DNA of 48,858 nt, counting the filler, from Bipalium vagum (lineage: Eukaryota), in assembly GCA_037834085.1 (NCBI GenBank). It is 2 parts of 2 records of this genome, joined end to end, with 100 filler letters (N's around TTAATTAATTAA, not from the genome) between each part and the next. Parts side by side here need not be neighbours in the genome. Positions count along the whole stretch, not along the records: positions 18,742 to 48,858 come from JBBMKC010005356.1; 1 more part is not named here. One strand, 5' to 3'. Position 1 is the stretch's first letter, and every line of letters begins with the position of its first letter. The translations under genes were made by a program, and so were the position numbers. This document shows, piece by piece, positions 15,496 to 48,784 of this stretch. The notes below the pieces were generated by a model, which was given only the letters and a program-made list of their open reading frames with translations, made no database searches and was not told the DNA's origin.

Positions 15496-15725
15496 TAAAT
15501 GAAGCTGAGAAATCGGGTGTATCAAAGGTTAAAATAAACAATTATCTGGTGAATATTCTTTTGAATAATATAATTAATTCTCTAAGAAATATTAATATTT
15601 AATTGATATAAATAAAATAAACAAAGAGTTGAAGATTTGATTAAGTATTTGATTTAAGCACATCCTATCTAAGGACAGAAAGACATTAAATACAAATTTA
15701 AGCATTTAATAAAAAAAATAATAAC

Positions 15726-16285
15726 TTTTCCCAAATCTACAAATTCATTGTAGAGACTGTATGGCACAAGTGGTTCTGATAAAGAAATAAGTTTGCTCTT
15801 AACTACATTTGCCAGGGTAATAGGATGTTCATTGATTAGGTCAGTATCAATTCCTTGATTGTTAAGAGATTCCATAACTGATCCAACCTTAAGCTTGGAA
15901 GCGGAAATTCGATATATACCATGTGTGGATAATCCATTGATTTCAATAATTTCAATGCATTTTAAAATTATCTCTATAACTGAATCTACTTCCTTCTGCC
16001 ATTCCAGATCCTTATCTCCTAATCCCTCAGCACTACCTCCCATACTACTGGTACTGCCAGACGTACTTTTTTTCCCTTTAACGGTTTGATTTCGACGATT
16101 TCCTTCACCAGATGCATTACCAGAACCACTGCCACCTTGGCGAAATAAATTAGATCCAAATTCAACAATTGTATTTAGGACTCCAGTTTTATTTGGTCCT
16201 GTTGTCATAACTCCATCTCCTGTAGAAGTGATTTCTGTGTCTGAATCAGAGTCTGAATGGCTTTGAAGTATACTTCGACTGGGCC
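15726..16285 (-). CDS. RhoGAP gene (ARHGAP29/ARHGAP45/GMIP-like), exon with first half of the GAP domain
   Basis: IILKCIEIIEINGLSTHGIYRISAS keeps the arginine finger. LANVVKSKLISLSEPLVPYSLYNEFVDLGK resembles ARHGAP29/45 LPEP...LY.EF..LAKE. Acceptor TTGAAG|, donor AAA|GTTATT. Confidence 0.93.
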
Positions 16286-16377
16286 CTTCAAATAATAATA
16301 TAGAAAATAATATTCAAATATTAAAAAATAATCTTGCTAAAAAATTTATACATCTGGTGCTTAACATAATCAACTAC

Positions 16378-34268: not shown

Positions 34269-35140
34269 GATAAAGGAAATAAAGAAATCATGGATGACAT
34301 AGGTCTACGACAGTTATTCGAATTTAGTACAAAAATGTATTGTTTATGTTCAACAACGAATGATACAAGCAAACAGATGGAATAGCCACGGGGTCGCCAT
34401 TAGGACCAACATTATCATCAATATTCATGGGTTACTTAGAAAAGGTAATCGACAATTACCAAGGAAGTAAACTACTGAATAATAAAAGTTACGTTTATGA
34501 TGTATTTTAATATTTGAAAGTGAAAATCAAATCAATTCATTTTAAAAATACATGAATAGTCTGCATGAAAATATTAATTTCACGATGGAGAAAGAAAGAA
34601 ATGAAAAAATACCATTTCTAGATGTTATAATTAAAAAGGAGAAATTAAATAATAAATTAAAGATTAATATATTTAGAAAAGAAACGGATACAGGTCTATA
34701 TATGGCAAACAATAGTTTCTATGTAGAAAGATATAAAAGTTGATTAATAAAATGATTAATTTATAGAGTATGGTCTTTAACATCAGATTATAAAGAGATA
34801 GATAAGGAGCTGGATATTATAAAAGAAAGGTTGAAAAAGAATGCATATTCAGATAGAAATAAAGAAAAGATCATTAATGGAACAATTAGCAGATTAATAA
34901 CTGGAAAAAAAAGATGAAAGAAAAGTGAAAATAGAAAAGAAGAGTTCAAGAAAAAACTGTTGAGCATGAAGATCTAAAGTTGATTTCAATGTCAGTAAAA
35001 ACGAAAAATTTTTAAAAATTAAAACGCCAACACCTGAAATATTGCAAGCTAATATTGTATATGTATTTAAATGTCATGGTTGTAATAGCCTATACATAGA
35101 GAAGACAAAGCACCACCGGAAAACATGTATTAGTGAAAAT
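34269..35140 (+). mobile_element. Penelope-like retroelement relic (RT + GIY-YIG endonuclease)
   Basis: YKQTDGIATGSPLGPTLSSIFMGYLE, YVYD (from YVDD), NSLHENINFTMEKERNEKIPFLDVII, IFRKETDTGLY, then ANIVYVFKCHGCNSLYIEKTKHHRKTCISE. Confidence 0.92.
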
Positions 35141-36284
35141 TTTCAATTAAGCAGAATGAGTAAAGTTTTAGATAATTCTTTAAATTCTATAAAATTTAAA
35201 ATATACCGAAATATTATGAAATATATAAATATGCTTAAACCTTTTGTTGAATTACCGGAAACTATAAGATCAAAAAATGATCGTGATAATTTTATAATAA
35301 ATAACTATAAGATGAGAATAGGAAGATAAAAAAAATTTTAATTTGAGAATAATACAAAATTAGAATTCAGAGGTTAAATCATAGGAATGATGATAATCAA
35401 CATTGAAAATTATTTAATAATAAATAAATATATTAGTGGAAATTTAAGAGTGAGAATATAAAGATATATCGATGATTATATCAAGATGAAATAAATAAAA
35501 AAACTACAAGATTATAAAATTTACAAACGAAAAAATTCATTTGATCAATTTGTAAATATAAAAATATTTATCTGTTAAAAAGCTAATCATAATAATGTTT
35601 ATCATTTAATTTTAAAATATTTTTTTAAAAAAAATAGAAATCCAGATAGAAAATGATAAGAAAAAGGTTTTAATAAATTTGATTTAGATTCTGATAATAT
35701 TTTTACTTTATTATTTTTTAAAAATTCCTTAAGATGCTAATGAAAATAAAATAGTTACATTTGGTAAAACAAAGGATTTGTAAAAAATAATATTAATTCT
35801 GATAAACTAATTTTTGAAAAGAAAGAGTTTAGTTTTAAATAATCCTAATAATCTTTATGCAGAAAATAAATCAGAAAATTATGAAATAATTGAAAGCATA
35901 AAATTTAAACTAACAGGAAATAATTATGAAAATTTTAATAAGATCCAAATAGATGAAATAAAAATTTATGATTTTTTTAAAAATTTAATAAAAGACAAAT
36001 AAAATATTTAGAAAATGGAAATGTAACAAATTATCCATATGGATATTAGTTAAATTGTAAATTTTTGTATACCAACTAAAATAAGACAAATGATTAACTC
36101 CATTATTTCTAAGAACTAAAAGATTATCAGATTTTTGTAGATTTGATTTTTTTTTGCAGAACCAAAAATTTTAATTTTTTTTATAGAAATAATAACTAAA
36201 AAAAAATCAAATTTTCATTGTTACTTAAAATTAACTAAACATAAAAAATTAATCAAATTTCGAAATCAAATTTTCCTTTCAAAA

Positions 36285-36838
36285 ATGGAAAAGAAACAGT
36301 ATAATAAATGTTTTCAAATAAAGTCGGTTACAGAATTTTATTTTAAAAATAAATAATTGTAAATGTTGTCACAGGACCGATATTAATAATCATAGAAGTA
36401 TTCCGGAAATTAAATATAATATAATGATTATCATAGAAAAAGAAAAAATGAAAATCTAATGTTAAAATTTAGACAAAATTTTTTATGCTATCTTAAATAG
36501 GGCTTTAAAAGAACAAAGAACAGAAGAATTATTTGGATGTTGTTTTGATTTTCTAATTAATTGGTTTGAATTTCAATATTTTGATGCAATAACATGGGAA
36601 ATTCAAAGACATTACTTGACTTAGATTTACCAGTTTCAAAATTTAATCGAAATAATAAAAAACAATTAATGTGTTGATATAATTAAAAAAAAATTTAAGA
36701 CCTTTAACTGTTCAAAAGAATTTATCAAAAAGTAATAAAATAGATTATTGGCAATATATCTTTCAAGAAATTAAAGCAAAGTATTTTATAAAGGAATATG
36801 AAAAGGAAATGATAATCTTTAATAATTTTTTAAAATGA
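36285..36838 (+). pseudogene. Frameshifted virus-type Zn-ribbon + HNH (endonuclease VII-like) nuclease gene
   Basis: Stitched translation: MEKKQYNKCFQIKSVTEFYFKNK/NCKCCHR.../NDYHRKRKNENLMLKFRQNF/NRALKEQRTEELFGCCFDFLINWFEFQYFDAITWE/..DLDLPVSKFNRNNKKQLMC*YN*K/NLRPLTVQKNLSKSNKIDYWQYIFQEIKAKYF. This follows, in order, the pattern C..C...K...EF...CK.C; T.ELLGC...FL..W.E.QF...MTWEN...W.IDH..P.S.F...CFNW.NL.PL....NLSK..K. Confidence 0.72.
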
Positions 36839-39800
36839 TTAATTATTTTCCACTGTCTTTCTCATTCTCTTTTTTCCTTATTTCAGTTAATTAATTAATT
36901 GCTATTTTTTGAGATTGAGAAAATTTTAATTGTTTTATATTCCTTTTCATATTTTGGGAAATACCCTATGCACACCTATAAGTTAATCATTTTGCAGTCG
37001 CAAGACTGTTACTGCTTTCTTTTGAACCCGAATATCGCCAGACTCATCTGGTTATCTGTACAGACTCATGTTTTTCTTTTTTATATATACGCTATTTTTT
37101 ATATTTATTTGTGGCTTCAAAATATAAAATATTTAAACTTAATTTAACCAAAAATAATAAAATAATTGAAACGGTAACTTTCTTCCTTGATCAATCTTTG
37201 GACTGGAAACAAAAAAAATTTTTAATTAAATATTTCAAATCTTTTTAATAAATAAAGATGTTTTAATTAATATTGGTAAAATTGATTCACTGTCCAAAGT
37301 GACCATTGTCGGTAAAGTTCATGAATCTATTTATTCTAGGGATAAATTTGGAAGTATCTCGAGGAAAACAAAGTGGTTCTATTTAATAATACTATTAACA
37401 CCCCATTAATATTTGGATACAAGGTCACCCAGATATAAGTTTTTAATACTCAAGTTACCCACAGTGCTAGAAATAGCTCGTATTGGGTGTAACCATAGTC
37501 TTCGATTATATTCAACATATTGGACGAGAAACTTAAAGCCTCAATTTTTATCATGCAGCCATATTAGGTAAATGGGTACTCTCTATATCTTGTAAAAATA
37601 AAAAAAACTTTTTGTCTAACTGAATTTCTATTTGAATGATTTATATATTTTTCTGTTACTCTTGATCAGCCGGTGATTACCACGTGTACAAGTAATGATT
37701 ATTTCATAATTAGACAATTAAAAAATATTAAAACTTTGAACAAATTTAGAAATAATCTTTAAATTTTCATGAAAAAATTTTTTCATCTATATAACGCTTT
37801 TCGAAACATTTCTCGCAATAATTTTTTTAATTTTATTTAAATTTTTTGACATTTTCTGGATGTTACAATATTTATTTTTATAAAATTGGACGAGGGGTTA
37901 AAAAAAATTAAATTAAATTTTATATTTTATCTAAATATTATTTAAAGTTTTACTACTTATTAGTTTAAGTAGTATGAAATCGAAAAGCGGCTGAAATGGT
38001 TTGAAAATTTACTTTCATTTTGAAATAGCGATAAAAAATTTATACTCAAGAAAAATATTGGTTCTAATTTTAAAAGACAACGAATAAATATTTAGTAAAA
38101 ATATAAATTTTTTTAAAATTACAAATAAAGTTTAAAAAAATAATTATTTAATTTTCAAAATAATTTATTTAATTTTATGAGCTTTTAAATGTTATTTTTG
38201 TCCATGAGTCATAAATGGATTTTTTAAGTTCGCCAAAATTCTTTTTTATTTTTTTGCTGGGAAAGTTTACTCAGTTAAAATATTCATCTTTAGTTTAAAA
38301 AATCGATTAAATTTTTTTTTGTTTGTTAATTAAAATTAATTTAATGTGTTATTTTAATTGAATTTAAACGATATCGAAATATTTCGTTTTTTAATTCTAA
38401 AAAATAGTTTTATTAATTAAAGAATTTAGGTATGCATTTCTATTATTAATTTAATGGCTTACATTAAAAGATTTTAAAACCAACCTTATTTTTAAAATTT
38501 TATTCACAATTCAAGCTTAAATAGGTTAGTATCTCCCCCGTTTTGTGATTGATTCACCACAATGGACCAATAAAAATTAATATTTAAAAGTAATAACCAA
38601 TCGGATAAGGTTTAGTGTTAGGTTACGATAAGGATTGAGAGTTAGGGGTTAAAAATTCTGAAAAATATTATTAGAATTAAAGTTAATGATTTATTTACGG
38701 TTTAAGTCCTGTAAATTTTATTTAAGAAGTATATTTCTAAAAATATCTTAGTTTATGTATTGATTAAATATATTATTTTATTGGTAACTATGGTTAAGAT
38801 GTCAACTTTGAATTTTTTCAAGTTTTTTTGATTTTTGTTTGTTACAAACTTTTTGTAATTAGAAAAAAAAATTTCAGTTTCGTAATAAGAATTTTATTCC
38901 CTTTCAGATAATATATTGATTATCTTTGGTTCATCTTTCAGATCAGTCTAGTTGGCGTTTGGATTCATATATGATCTCTATAAGGATAGTTTCACATATC
39001 CAACAGTCGAAAGCATAACGCAAAATTTTATTGATGTTCAGAAAAATCACCAGAAATACGTTTCATTGATAAATTGCTAAATAAAAATGAGGAATATATA
39101 AAAAATATTTTTAAATGTATTCACGTTAATGCTTAGTGAAAATCATAGTATAAAACGAAATTCGTATAAAAATGAAATAGGTCCCATTTTAAAAATCTGG
39201 TAACAATTTAAATAAAGCAGGTTCTGTATAAACCCTACTCACACAAACGTTTATTCTTATAAATTGAAAATATTTGATTCAAGAAAATTTACTACAGAAA
39301 TATTAAGTAACAGTAAAGTTTACTATAGTGGCAGAGCGACTATAGCCACGGAACTCACGAGAGAATTAAGATGATTCTAAAATAATAGAATAAAAAATCG
39401 AAGAAATCATATTCATATAATCTTTGTGGGTTTTCCCGCCTCTTATGCTACAGTACCCACAACATTAAAATTCGGGATATTTTCAGTCTACTAATTATTT
39501 GAAATATGATCTTGATCAGATAGTGAACGATTTCCTGCTGAGCTCACCAGATATTGAAAAAAGATGCTCTGATGACTAAAAAATTACAATTTTTGTTTGA
39601 TTTTTGAATAAAATCTCTTTTGGCAAGTTAAATTGTCTATCTATTCATAGTATGGTCCGCTAGCTAAAACCTACCCGGAAACTAAATTTTAGTGGCCTGC
39701 TTGTCTCAAAAAAAAATATAAAATATTTTAGTATCTCAAGAAATATCGAAGTCAATACATATCAGAAATACACTTTATTTGGCTTCTTTATTCTTAAATA

Positions 39801-46194: not shown

Positions 46195-46951
46195 TTAGAA
46201 TATAAATTTTTGCTTTTCCAAGTATGAAGAATGATTGTTGATTCTTCCCATTTTTATACTGGACACTGATAATCCACGGGGTCTGGGTGTTGCTATCAAC
46301 TGTCCCGTCATTAAAGGAGTGGAATTTCGACGTAAATCACCTTCACTGATCGTTTTGCAGTGCACAATACAAGAAAGAAATTGCCTTCGATAAGTGAGGC
46401 TGAGAATACAAAGAATCACGGGGTTTAGACAGTGGTATAGGTATGATAATATCTCACTTATTATTTGTATACTAACAAAAGCTTCATCAAAAACGAAAAC
46501 ATATATTTTGTGGATTTGTTCGGGCAATTTACATAAAATAAATATTATAACCAAGCAGAGGACGATTTTCGCTAATTTTTGTCGAGAATTTATATGAGCT
46601 GAGTTGACAGTGTTGATATTCCAGATATTATATCGGGATATCAAATATACGGCAATAACTATGTAGCATATTCCAATTGAGATAAAAGGAATTAAAAAAT
46701 ATATGGAAAATGTAATCCAGAACTGTTGGACTTTTTCATCATATGAATTGTATTCTGTTCTAATTGAACAGATTTCCATATATATGCAGTCAGATGAGCT
46801 TATGTTGACTCGAGCTATGTTGCTCTTCATTGTGAAAGGAATACCCACACCTATTGATGCTACCCATATGATAAATAAGCCTATTATTGCGAACCACTTT
46901 GATTGATTGGGAGATAATTGTCTTCGAAGTGGGCAAACAATGACTCGTAAT
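46195..46951 (-). CDS. Class A neuropeptide GPCR, CCHamide/excitatory-peptide/bombesin-receptor-like; terminal exon (ICL2 to C-terminus)
   Basis: Acceptor ATTTTAG| in phase 2 at the Arg of the DRY position, then RLRVIVCPLRR. TM4 FIIWVASIGVGIP, TM5 YFLIPFISIGICYIVIAVYLI, SRQKLAKIVLCLVIIFILCKLP, TM7 HCLNPVILCILSLTYRRQF; stop at 46195. Upstream exons were not found in the window. Confidence 0.92.
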
Positions 46952-48784
46952 CTAAAATTAAATAGTTTCTTTTATTATCAGTTTAAATCCTGAATTTTTC
47001 CAAGCTGGTGGAAAGCAATATGATAAAAATATCATTTTTACATTTATAAGAAATTTTTTTATTAAGTTCTTATTATTTTATATTTTTAGTAACGGTTACA
47101 AAAAGTTAAATTTGGAAAAGTTTTGTCCAAATATATTATTTTTATTACACAGTACTCAATAAGTGTACTCAGAAATATTTTATTTATTATTTAAATATTT
47201 ATTTTATTAATGGGAAAACCCTAGCAGTCTATTTATATTTATTTTTCTTCTATCATTACAACTCACAGGGTGATCGAACACATTACTTATTCTACTTGTT
47301 GTGAATGTTCACTAATTCGATAATGAGATAACGTTGTGTCTGCAGTGTGTGCGGAAAATCTGTAATAATATATTTTAATTTAGTATTTTAGTTAATATTT
47401 AATTATTATATATTTTGTGTTTAATAATTTCATATTTGGTATTCAAACAACGTTTTAAGTGCCCTACGGCTTTTATAATTCATGTAAGATCATAATTAAT
47501 CTTTATGGAACATTAAAAATCAATAGCTCATTTATATTTTAATGAATGAAATAAATTTATTGGTGCCAGTTAAAATTATTTTAATTGATATATAAATAAT
47601 GTTTCTTTTATTTTTACAAATATTTCGGTTCTAATTAAATTCCACTTATAACTTCACATAATTGAAATCAAAGTTGGGGTCGAGAATTATGATAATTAGA
47701 GAGAACTTGGTTTCAAGAGCATTGTCTGTTTATTATTATTAATTATATTAAAGCACAGGTTATATTAATTATTATTTTTAAAATAAAAAATAGTCCTATT
47801 ATCGTCTTATTTTTATTAATTAAAACAAAAGTTATTAAAACATGAATATCTTGTTATTTGCATTCCTAGAGACACAGCCTAAAGCCATATAATTTAACTG
47901 TTAAAAATCAAAGAAATCCAAAAATGTTTCATCCAAAAATTTAGTAAAAATAAAATTTGTATTTTAAATGGTGTTTTCTTCTGATATTTCTGCGAATGAC
48001 ATTTATAATATTACCAAAGGGAAATGCAATTGTAAATTATATTTTCCTTCCTTAATTAAAGCTATATCCATTAAACTTTAATCAGCTTTCGCATTTCAAA
48101 TGGACCCCGAAAAACATGATCCTCGTGTGGTATAGTTTTGTGGTATTTTACTGAAATTTTGTTTATTAAATAAATGTTACCAAACAAAAATTTGCTGTGT
48201 AAATAATACGATAACAATAATCAGATATCGTATAATTGATTTTTCAATTATAATTAAATAATTCAATTAAAATTTATTGGTAGAAATAAAGTTAAAAATA
48301 ATTGTAATTTTTATAGAATTTGTCAAGTATTTTCATTGAGGACAAAAGAAACTTTTTGGAATAGATTTTATTTGTTTTAAATATTACAATAAATTACAAA
48401 ATTCAAATTCAAATTATTTTATTTACAATAATTTTAACGAATGATTTTTAATTTAAACTTTTTTTTCAAAATAACTAAAATTATTCCATCATCTTTTTAA
48501 AAATTATGAAAATTAAATTAAAATCATTTATTTATAATAATTATAATTTTTTTAAATTTTTAAAATTAAAAATTCATATTAAATTACCAATTGTCTGATA
48601 ATTAATATAACATAATTAATAATAACAAGCTAAATTGTTTAAAAGTCGTCATAGTGTCTAATATCGAAGCAATAAAATTTTTTTAAAACTTTAAATTTAG
48701 TTAATAAAAAATGATATATTCTAAATAATTATTGTTTTTCTATCACGTATGGTTTTCATTTTTACAATTTAATTTTTATTTATA

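Follow-up and report, generated by a model that had tools for sequence, protein, structure and literature searches.

A 1.7-kb, AT-rich block in the genome of Bipalium vagum (GCA_037834085.1) is probably a dead remnant from the interior of a Maverick (Polinton/adintovirus), once integrated in the animal germ line. The block lies within a window of 48,858 nt, by which we mean the whole stretch of DNA analysed here (overall GC content 27%), and carries a decayed HNH endonuclease gene, a second decayed gene upstream of it, and probably a third (Table 1). The original prediction had read the HNH gene alone and missed the second, Maverick-type gene, which we regard as the best evidence on the origin of the relic.

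Table 1 Features of the relic and of the rest of the window (positions counted along the window)
Feature	Position	Strand	State and basis
Whole relic	35180–36838	.	AT-rich, 18% GC versus 27% in the window; no terminal repeat or target duplication found
Second decayed gene	35222–35650	+	Broken by six stops in a single frame, 5' part lost; linked via P0179 to a gene of L169
Probable third decayed gene	35750–36035	+	Collinear with the L169 penton-like protein, not significant
Decayed HNH (His-Me finger) endonuclease gene	36285–36838	+	Five frameshifts, one or two stops; fragment map, HMM rank, frameshift-aware alignment
Zn ribbon remnant, N-terminal	36285–36380	+	Three of four Cys left, one frameshift; alignment to P0096
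Broken active-site strand	36595–36645	+	7-nt deletion; His of the invariant Asp-His pair replaced by Leu
NLRPL..NLSK helix and C-terminal Y..QEIK tail (Maverick-linked subclades)	36689–36800	+	Tail motif comparison
Penelope-like retroelement relic (neighbour, outside the relic)	34300–35170	+	RT motifs, thumb, then GIY-YIG-like end
RhoGAP exon, host gene	15672–16313	-	Pfam E = 7e-15
Rhodopsin-family GPCR ORF, host gene	46198–46971	-	Pfam E = 2e-13
Tc1/mariner relics	10717, 11902, 14110, 39985, 41884		Pfam

The decayed HNH endonuclease gene

The consecutive plus-strand fragments that had been predicted to form one gene, coding for a protein of ~180 residues, proved to belong together. Six of them (36285–36353, 36322–36456, 36420–36497, 36466–36621, 36585–36674, and 36683–36835) lead to a terminal stop codon at 36836–36838, and the best of 277 proteins aligned to the stretch with a frameshift-aware score of 224, compared with maxima of 46 in 268 other stretches of the window and 48 in 200 shuffles. 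A frameshift-aware comparison had been proposed as a check; the relatives aligned here come from a family that includes HNH proteins of both giant viruses and phages. An intact relative of 181 aa (P0096) aligned from Met1 to residue 179 over 36285–36799, with identity at 63 of 168 residues.

Relatives were fetched with a degenerate pattern derived from the window's own HNH C-terminal motif, which matched viral contigs 111 times (the motif was in frame in 53 cases, of which 25 were distinct and at least 150 aa long), and with two profile searches, which gave 42 matches and then the best 120 of 419. An HMM built from the 25 viral-contig relatives, using only the 110 residues that precede the fetching motif and leaving out the motif itself, ranked the fragment 36466–36621 first among 2134 window fragments (E = 3e-5), with the next HNH fragment in order ranking second (E = 1.3). 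Queries with a single frame or a single fragment went unrecognised in Pfam, PHROGs (best E = 0.024), phages (best E = 8), the protein database (0 of 26 candidates), the Atlas, and viral contigs (0 of 52), and the window had no match to HNH in Pfam.

Alignments with 17 relatives placed the frameshifts near 36351, 36420, 36465–36492, 36593–36617, and 36676–36688, and most of them also contained the one or two in-frame stops, near 36675–36685. As had been proposed, the gene is a pseudogene: because of these frameshifts and stops, and because the catalytic His is absent, it is not an active member of the L246/'endonuclease VII'-like family, and the present copy is predicted to be without nuclease activity. 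Two details of the proposal were only partly borne out. The catalytic His, said to be deleted, is indeed absent, but its position aligns without a gap to L169 and L170, two of the relatives described below, and reads Leu, the 7-nt deletion lying directly before it; the Zn ribbon is a remnant without a complete Cys set, the first Cys being Tyr in the window. A reading of the breaks as tiny introns was rejected: the one near 36617 is not spanned by any GT-AG pair 20–70 nt apart, and at the remaining breaks such pairs would excise aligned sequence. A search of 35730–39000 with Rfam (E up to 1) found no group I intron around the HNH gene; decay could have erased one.

Neutral decay fits this pattern better than indel errors do, because in-frame stops occur in both decayed genes, conserved Cys, Trp, and His residues have been replaced, and the window sequence has a long terminal branch; neighbouring transposon relics have decayed likewise. 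We therefore consider it extremely unlikely that contaminant viral DNA or an error-rich contig was joined to a host scaffold during assembly and that the frameshifts are sequencing errors, even though the segment is compositionally distinct and several of the HNH breaks lie in A/T runs. One sequencing run contains 0.79 of 215 sampled words of 35000–37000 but, as possibly the assembly's own source, gives no independent support, and no RNA data set was found among those containing the region.

The HNH family and its Maverick-type members

The family call made beforehand, an HNH/endonuclease-VII-like group common to giant viruses and phages, agrees with sequence scores, annotations, and the predicted fold of P0096. 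The Asp-His pair (D120 and H121) and P124 were invariant in 99 of 99 aligned relatives, the rows of this alignment having been chosen by us from the matches; a count of the His in 110 of 110 rows was set aside, since those rows had been selected with a pattern containing that His. Among phage relatives, 96 records matched P0034, with the annotations 'endonuclease VII' or 'putative HNH endonuclease'. Pfam and NCBIfam hold no usable model for the family, and none of the solved structures matches it by sequence. The predicted model of P0096 (pLDDT 90.7), searched with Foldseek against BFVD, matched the 'intron encoded endonuclease' of Bodo saltans virus (E = 6e-15) and Mimivirus L246 (E = 1.5e-14). 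Matches in the PDB were weak and mostly to HNH proteins (best Foldseek E = 0.078), including Cap5 (Z 5.1, rmsd 3.7, 90 aligned) and IscB (Z 4.9, rmsd 3.1, 69 aligned), while residues 1–40 of the model resembled Hpy99I (Z 5.7, rmsd 1.8, 40 aligned). On the model of this one intact relative, with strong BFVD and weak PDB matches, a beta-beta-alpha-Me fold may tentatively be proposed for the family.

By protein score, L169 (200) and L170 (196) ranked first and second among the fetched loci, the best giant-virus-type locus scoring 144. They also led when 273 of the loci were compared with the window by blastn, L169 with 69.8% identity over 245 nt (E = 1e-19) and L170 with 65% over 388 nt (E = 2e-14), and the next match on the HNH gene followed at E = 2.5e-7. 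The Maverick-type contig L169 (6.7 kb) carries an ATPase (Pox_A32, E = 4e-10), a pX-like gene (9e-4), a DJR capsid gene (5e-28), an HNH gene, and a Zn-PLA2-rve integrase (PLA2 and rve, 4e-12 and 7e-13); its first ORF, which has no Pfam match, is presumably penton-like. In L170 (positions 1-1755), a group I intron (RF00028, 101 bits) harbours the HNH gene and splits a Zn/PLA2 gene 53–72% identical to the N-terminus of the L169 integrase, which in L169 is uninterrupted. In L191, the HNH gene is followed by an rve integrase, and L183 has an upstream gene in common with L191, the one feature that suggests its context. No pPolB was present among the fetched Maverick loci. Because the closest context-bearing loci, L169 and L170, are Maverick-type, a Maverick/adintovirus is the most likely source of the HNH gene.

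Several further members of the family were recorded in passing. P0115 has an intron-like C-terminal tail similar to that of L170. P0028, P0033, and P0056–P0064 are many near-identical HNH copies on long ENA contigs (up to 540 kb), the pattern that a Maverick family with many copies in a single eukaryotic genome would give. In L171:87-1057, a PLA2-like ORF faces an HNH gene that has Glu-His instead of Asp-His and is without the Maverick-linked tail; this HNH was possibly acquired separately by a Maverick-type element. Within a giant-virus region, L043:1-6048, an NCLDV capsid coding sequence is accompanied by six group I intron matches, four of them above the gathering score and the strongest reaching 98 bits in Rfam, and by three different nuclease ORFs, namely the L246-type HNH, a GIY-YIG, and an HNH_3.

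L169, L170, L183, and L191 belong to two subclades with good support, one of 10 and one of 14 HNH proteins, so that genomic context is known for 4 of the 24 members. The tail motif Y..Q[EQ][IV]K was found in the window and in 24/24 proteins of these Maverick-linked subclades versus 0/86 others, and [LI]PV[SAN] in 12/24 versus 0/86; neither motif occurred in any of the 14 proteins of the giant-virus sister group. The shared tail argues for a Maverick source, although it is an imperfect marker, given the tail-less HNH beside a PLA2-like neighbour in L171. The summed bit scores of three unjoined HNH fragments were also highest with the L169 subclade (86.8, compared with 65.0, 64.3, and 74.6 for other groups), but the middle fragment alone scored 34.1 bits with a mixed 'rest' group and 28.4 with the L169 subclade.

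For phylogenies, 327 cores were reduced to 200 by removing near-copies and scores under 60, then to the best 110, to 72, and to 46 rows. In an LG+G4 tree of 72 rows, the window joined both Maverick-linked subclades (bootstrap 88), and FastTree placed it beside the L169 subclade (support 0.45). Set against a Maverick source, the branch of the window is long (1.97), a mixture-model tree of 46 rows did not separate it from the two Maverick-linked subclades and the giant-virus sister group, and a grouping with that sister group was not rejected by the AU test (p = 0.127). As evidence on the source, the trees are weaker than the scores and motifs.

The AU result would also suit an endogenised fragment of a giant virus (Nucleocytoviricota), either of this animal or of an ingested organism. 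The HNH family is widespread in such viruses: relatives on giant-virus contigs adjoin NCLDV capsid and VLTF3 genes (L043 and L112), and the best 120 of 419 matches include named proteins of Pacmanvirus A23 (PACV_243) and Megavirus caiporensis, besides the BFVD matches to Bodo saltans virus and Mimivirus L246. We nonetheless consider this origin unlikely, in view of the lower scores of giant-virus-type loci and the absence of both diagnostic motifs from the sister group. In addition, no NCLDV core gene or giant-virus neighbour was found in the flanks of the relic: 1497 neighbour ORFs of the fetched loci gave no match there by tblastn, and neither did 3483 ORFs in frameshift-aware alignment (best score 78, off strand). 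The second decayed gene likewise points to L169; its conserved motif had 0 exact matches in viral contigs, a weak result that covers exact matching only. Of the sources named in the original prediction, the Maverick/polinton is thus favoured by L169 and L170, the tail motif, and the second gene, and a giant virus is much less likely.

The second decayed gene and the limits of the relic

A read-through of 35201–35692, searched against 1.84 billion proteins, yielded two matches, P0179 (E = 1.2e-8) and P0180. P0179 aligned to 35222–35629 with 50 identities in 153 columns, through the six stops and in a single frame, and its score of 158 compares with a control maximum of 56 in 128 stretches. P0180, a tandem-repeat protein, was rejected as a relative, with 30 residues matched and a score of 51 versus a control maximum of 43. 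P0179 is a full-length relative of the ORF at L169:824-1669, which lies between the penton-like gene and the ATPase (pairwise BLASTP E = 9e-9; score 166, equalled in 0 of 2000 shuffles; best of 3966 ORFs). The L169 ORF alone had no significant match in the window, its C-terminal part ranking fourth among 2436 window tiles (E = 3). The second gene is therefore related to the L169 gene through one intermediate, P0179, a protein without genomic context, and this route to L169 argues for a Maverick source. Scans of viral contigs with the L169 capsid, the integrase alignment, P0179, and the P0179 motif returned no further Maverick contexts.

The HNH gene and the second gene share a strand and an AT-rich block, each of them is broken, and each has relatives in L169 (the second gene via P0179). 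Adjacent to each other and found by independent searches, they lead to the same kind of element, and the closest relatives of known context lie for both in Mavericks, a proxy for origin rather than a formal criterion. Counting against this, L169 keeps the two genes far apart and on opposite strands, so that order and orientation differ from those in the window, the link of the second gene passes through a single context-less protein, and the relic has neither a hallmark gene nor a terminal repeat. Tested against the single L169 versions, the window showed no trace of a capsid, ATPase, or integrase gene, and the segment's frames contained no pPolB by Pfam; since the relic is 1.7 kb long, the absence of hallmark genes is expected of a fragment. 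Neither a terminal inverted repeat nor a target-site duplication was found near the ends of the relic, both of which an internal fragment would lose.

The block 35180–36830 has the lowest GC content of the 1650-base stretches of the window (0 of 844 overlapping stretches elsewhere were as low), with 17% GC in the 1.1 kb upstream of the HNH gene. On the plus strand, 35180–36130 is stop-poor, with 3 of 200 shuffles as low. Between the second gene and the HNH gene, 35750–36035 scored 54 against the penton-like protein of L169, a value that 11 of 396 control stretches and 42 of 300 shuffles also reached; we consider a third decayed gene probable here, and its identity as a penton gene was rejected, as this score is not significant against the controls.

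On the 5' side, the second gene is cut, without approximately its first 97 residues, where it adjoins the Penelope-like relic. The Penelope and GIY-YIG labels of this neighbour are our own assumption from its motifs; its RVT_1 match (E = 0.009) is below the curated cut-off, and it has no GIY-YIG match in Pfam. The junction raises the question of whether the genes were cargo of another mobile element, such as this retroelement, that had picked up Maverick or viral genes: the two relics share a strand and meet directly at the 3' end of the Penelope-like one, and the truncation of the second gene falls exactly there. Simple truncation gives the same picture, however, with genes that would still be Maverick-derived, and the GC content drops from 27% to 17% at the boundary. 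We hence judge cargo carriage very unlikely. On the far side of the Penelope-like relic, no match to the missing 5' part was found (best score 36), which favours neither reading.

Smaller features were seen around the HNH gene. The gap before its start holds a 20-nt inverted repeat (36136–36217, 90%, 42-nt loop) and repeated AAATCAAATTT words (36136–36278), and a 16-nt direct repeat also lies upstream of the gene, all of low complexity; the repeats at 36136–36278 are possibly a regulatory remnant. Downstream, the plus strand of 36850–37700 is stop-poor (0 of 200 shuffles as low), its minus-strand frames being without a significant Pfam match, and a Tudor-knot match (E = 0.12) was treated as chance.

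Proposed history and relation to known elements

On a Maverick origin, a whole element would have entered the germ line through its own retrovirus-like integrase. The original HNH protein probably acted as an accessory nuclease of the homing type, encoded by a free-standing gene like that of L169 or within an intron like that of L170. Its Zn ribbon and helix would have bound DNA, and the Asp-His pair and two Asn residues would have served metal-dependent cutting; such a nuclease may cut related genomes that are without its gene, which is then copied in during repair, a homing model that follows earlier descriptions (PMC5871332, PMC11296320, and PMC12220804). After integration, the element would have decayed neutrally and lost its flanks, its 5' side being likely cut by the Penelope-like element.

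Degraded germ-line relics of adintoviruses/Mavericks have been reported in many animals (Starrett et al. 2021, PMC8502044). The earlier notion of a fossil of an undescribed virus therefore holds only weakly, insofar as Mavericks are virus-like. The gene classes described there for the proposed Adintoviridae (DJR capsid, packaging ATPase, rve integrase, PLA2, and pX-like) correspond to those of our closest loci, whereas the window is left with just two, perhaps three, of the element's genes, none of them a hallmark. The word 'endonuclease' is absent from the main text and one supplementary file of PMC8502044.

With the giant-virus and phage HNH proteins (L246, Bodo saltans virus, PACV_243, and 'endonuclease VII'), the window gene shares the layout of Zn ribbon, helix, Asp-His, and Asn..Asn. 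It differs from the giant-virus family in being a pseudogene, in its affinity by motif and score to the Y..QEIK-tail subclades, in the Maverick-type nature of the known contexts, and in that no group I intron was found. Bodo saltans virus is described as having homing endonucleases of the HNH and GIY-YIG types in introns (PMC5871332), and Polintons and polinton-like viruses have already been reported to contain HNH nucleases and group I introns (PMC10748475 and PMC12220804), with PMC6431247 providing general background. The HNH domains reported from Polintons and polinton-like viruses are for the most part joined to pPolB or a helicase (PacI-like, HNH_3), and protist elements are the source of the group I introns. 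Here, by contrast, a separate gene of the L246 type appears in animal-type Mavericks, set apart from the fused domains on the basis of their descriptions. We found no account of an L246-type HNH in animal Mavericks in full-text searches of the literature within reach; repeat libraries such as Repbase or other supplements of PMC8502044 may already annotate the relic.

The locus itself is an ordinary dead relic, of use as a marker that a Maverick with a giant-virus-type HNH entered the lineage of this animal, and its two genes can serve as probes for better-preserved copies. More interesting than the relic is the intron-borne HNH of L170, which splits a Maverick-type PLA2/integrase-like gene. 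At least two subclades of Maverick-type contigs carry a free-standing or intron-borne HNH, with sister groups in giant viruses, and a homing endonuclease family common to the two offers a way to test their contact. Drawing on the L170 intron in a PLA2/integrase-type gene and on the several introns in the capsid region of L043, we put forward, tentatively and with considerable doubt, that animal-type Mavericks and giant viruses trade one homing endonuclease family, sometimes together with self-splicing group I introns. Were this so, the relic would record this exchange in the germ line of an animal host, animal Mavericks would have shared cells with giant viruses, and the nuclease might serve against giant viruses or rival Mavericks; a hypothesis of dependence on, or competition with, giant viruses has been stated for polinton-like viruses (PMC11296320).

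Elsewhere in the window, 32-nt terminal inverted repeats (94% identical), 1.2 kb apart at 2096–3364, enclose an ORF that has no significant Pfam match and that we take to resemble a decayed transposase.
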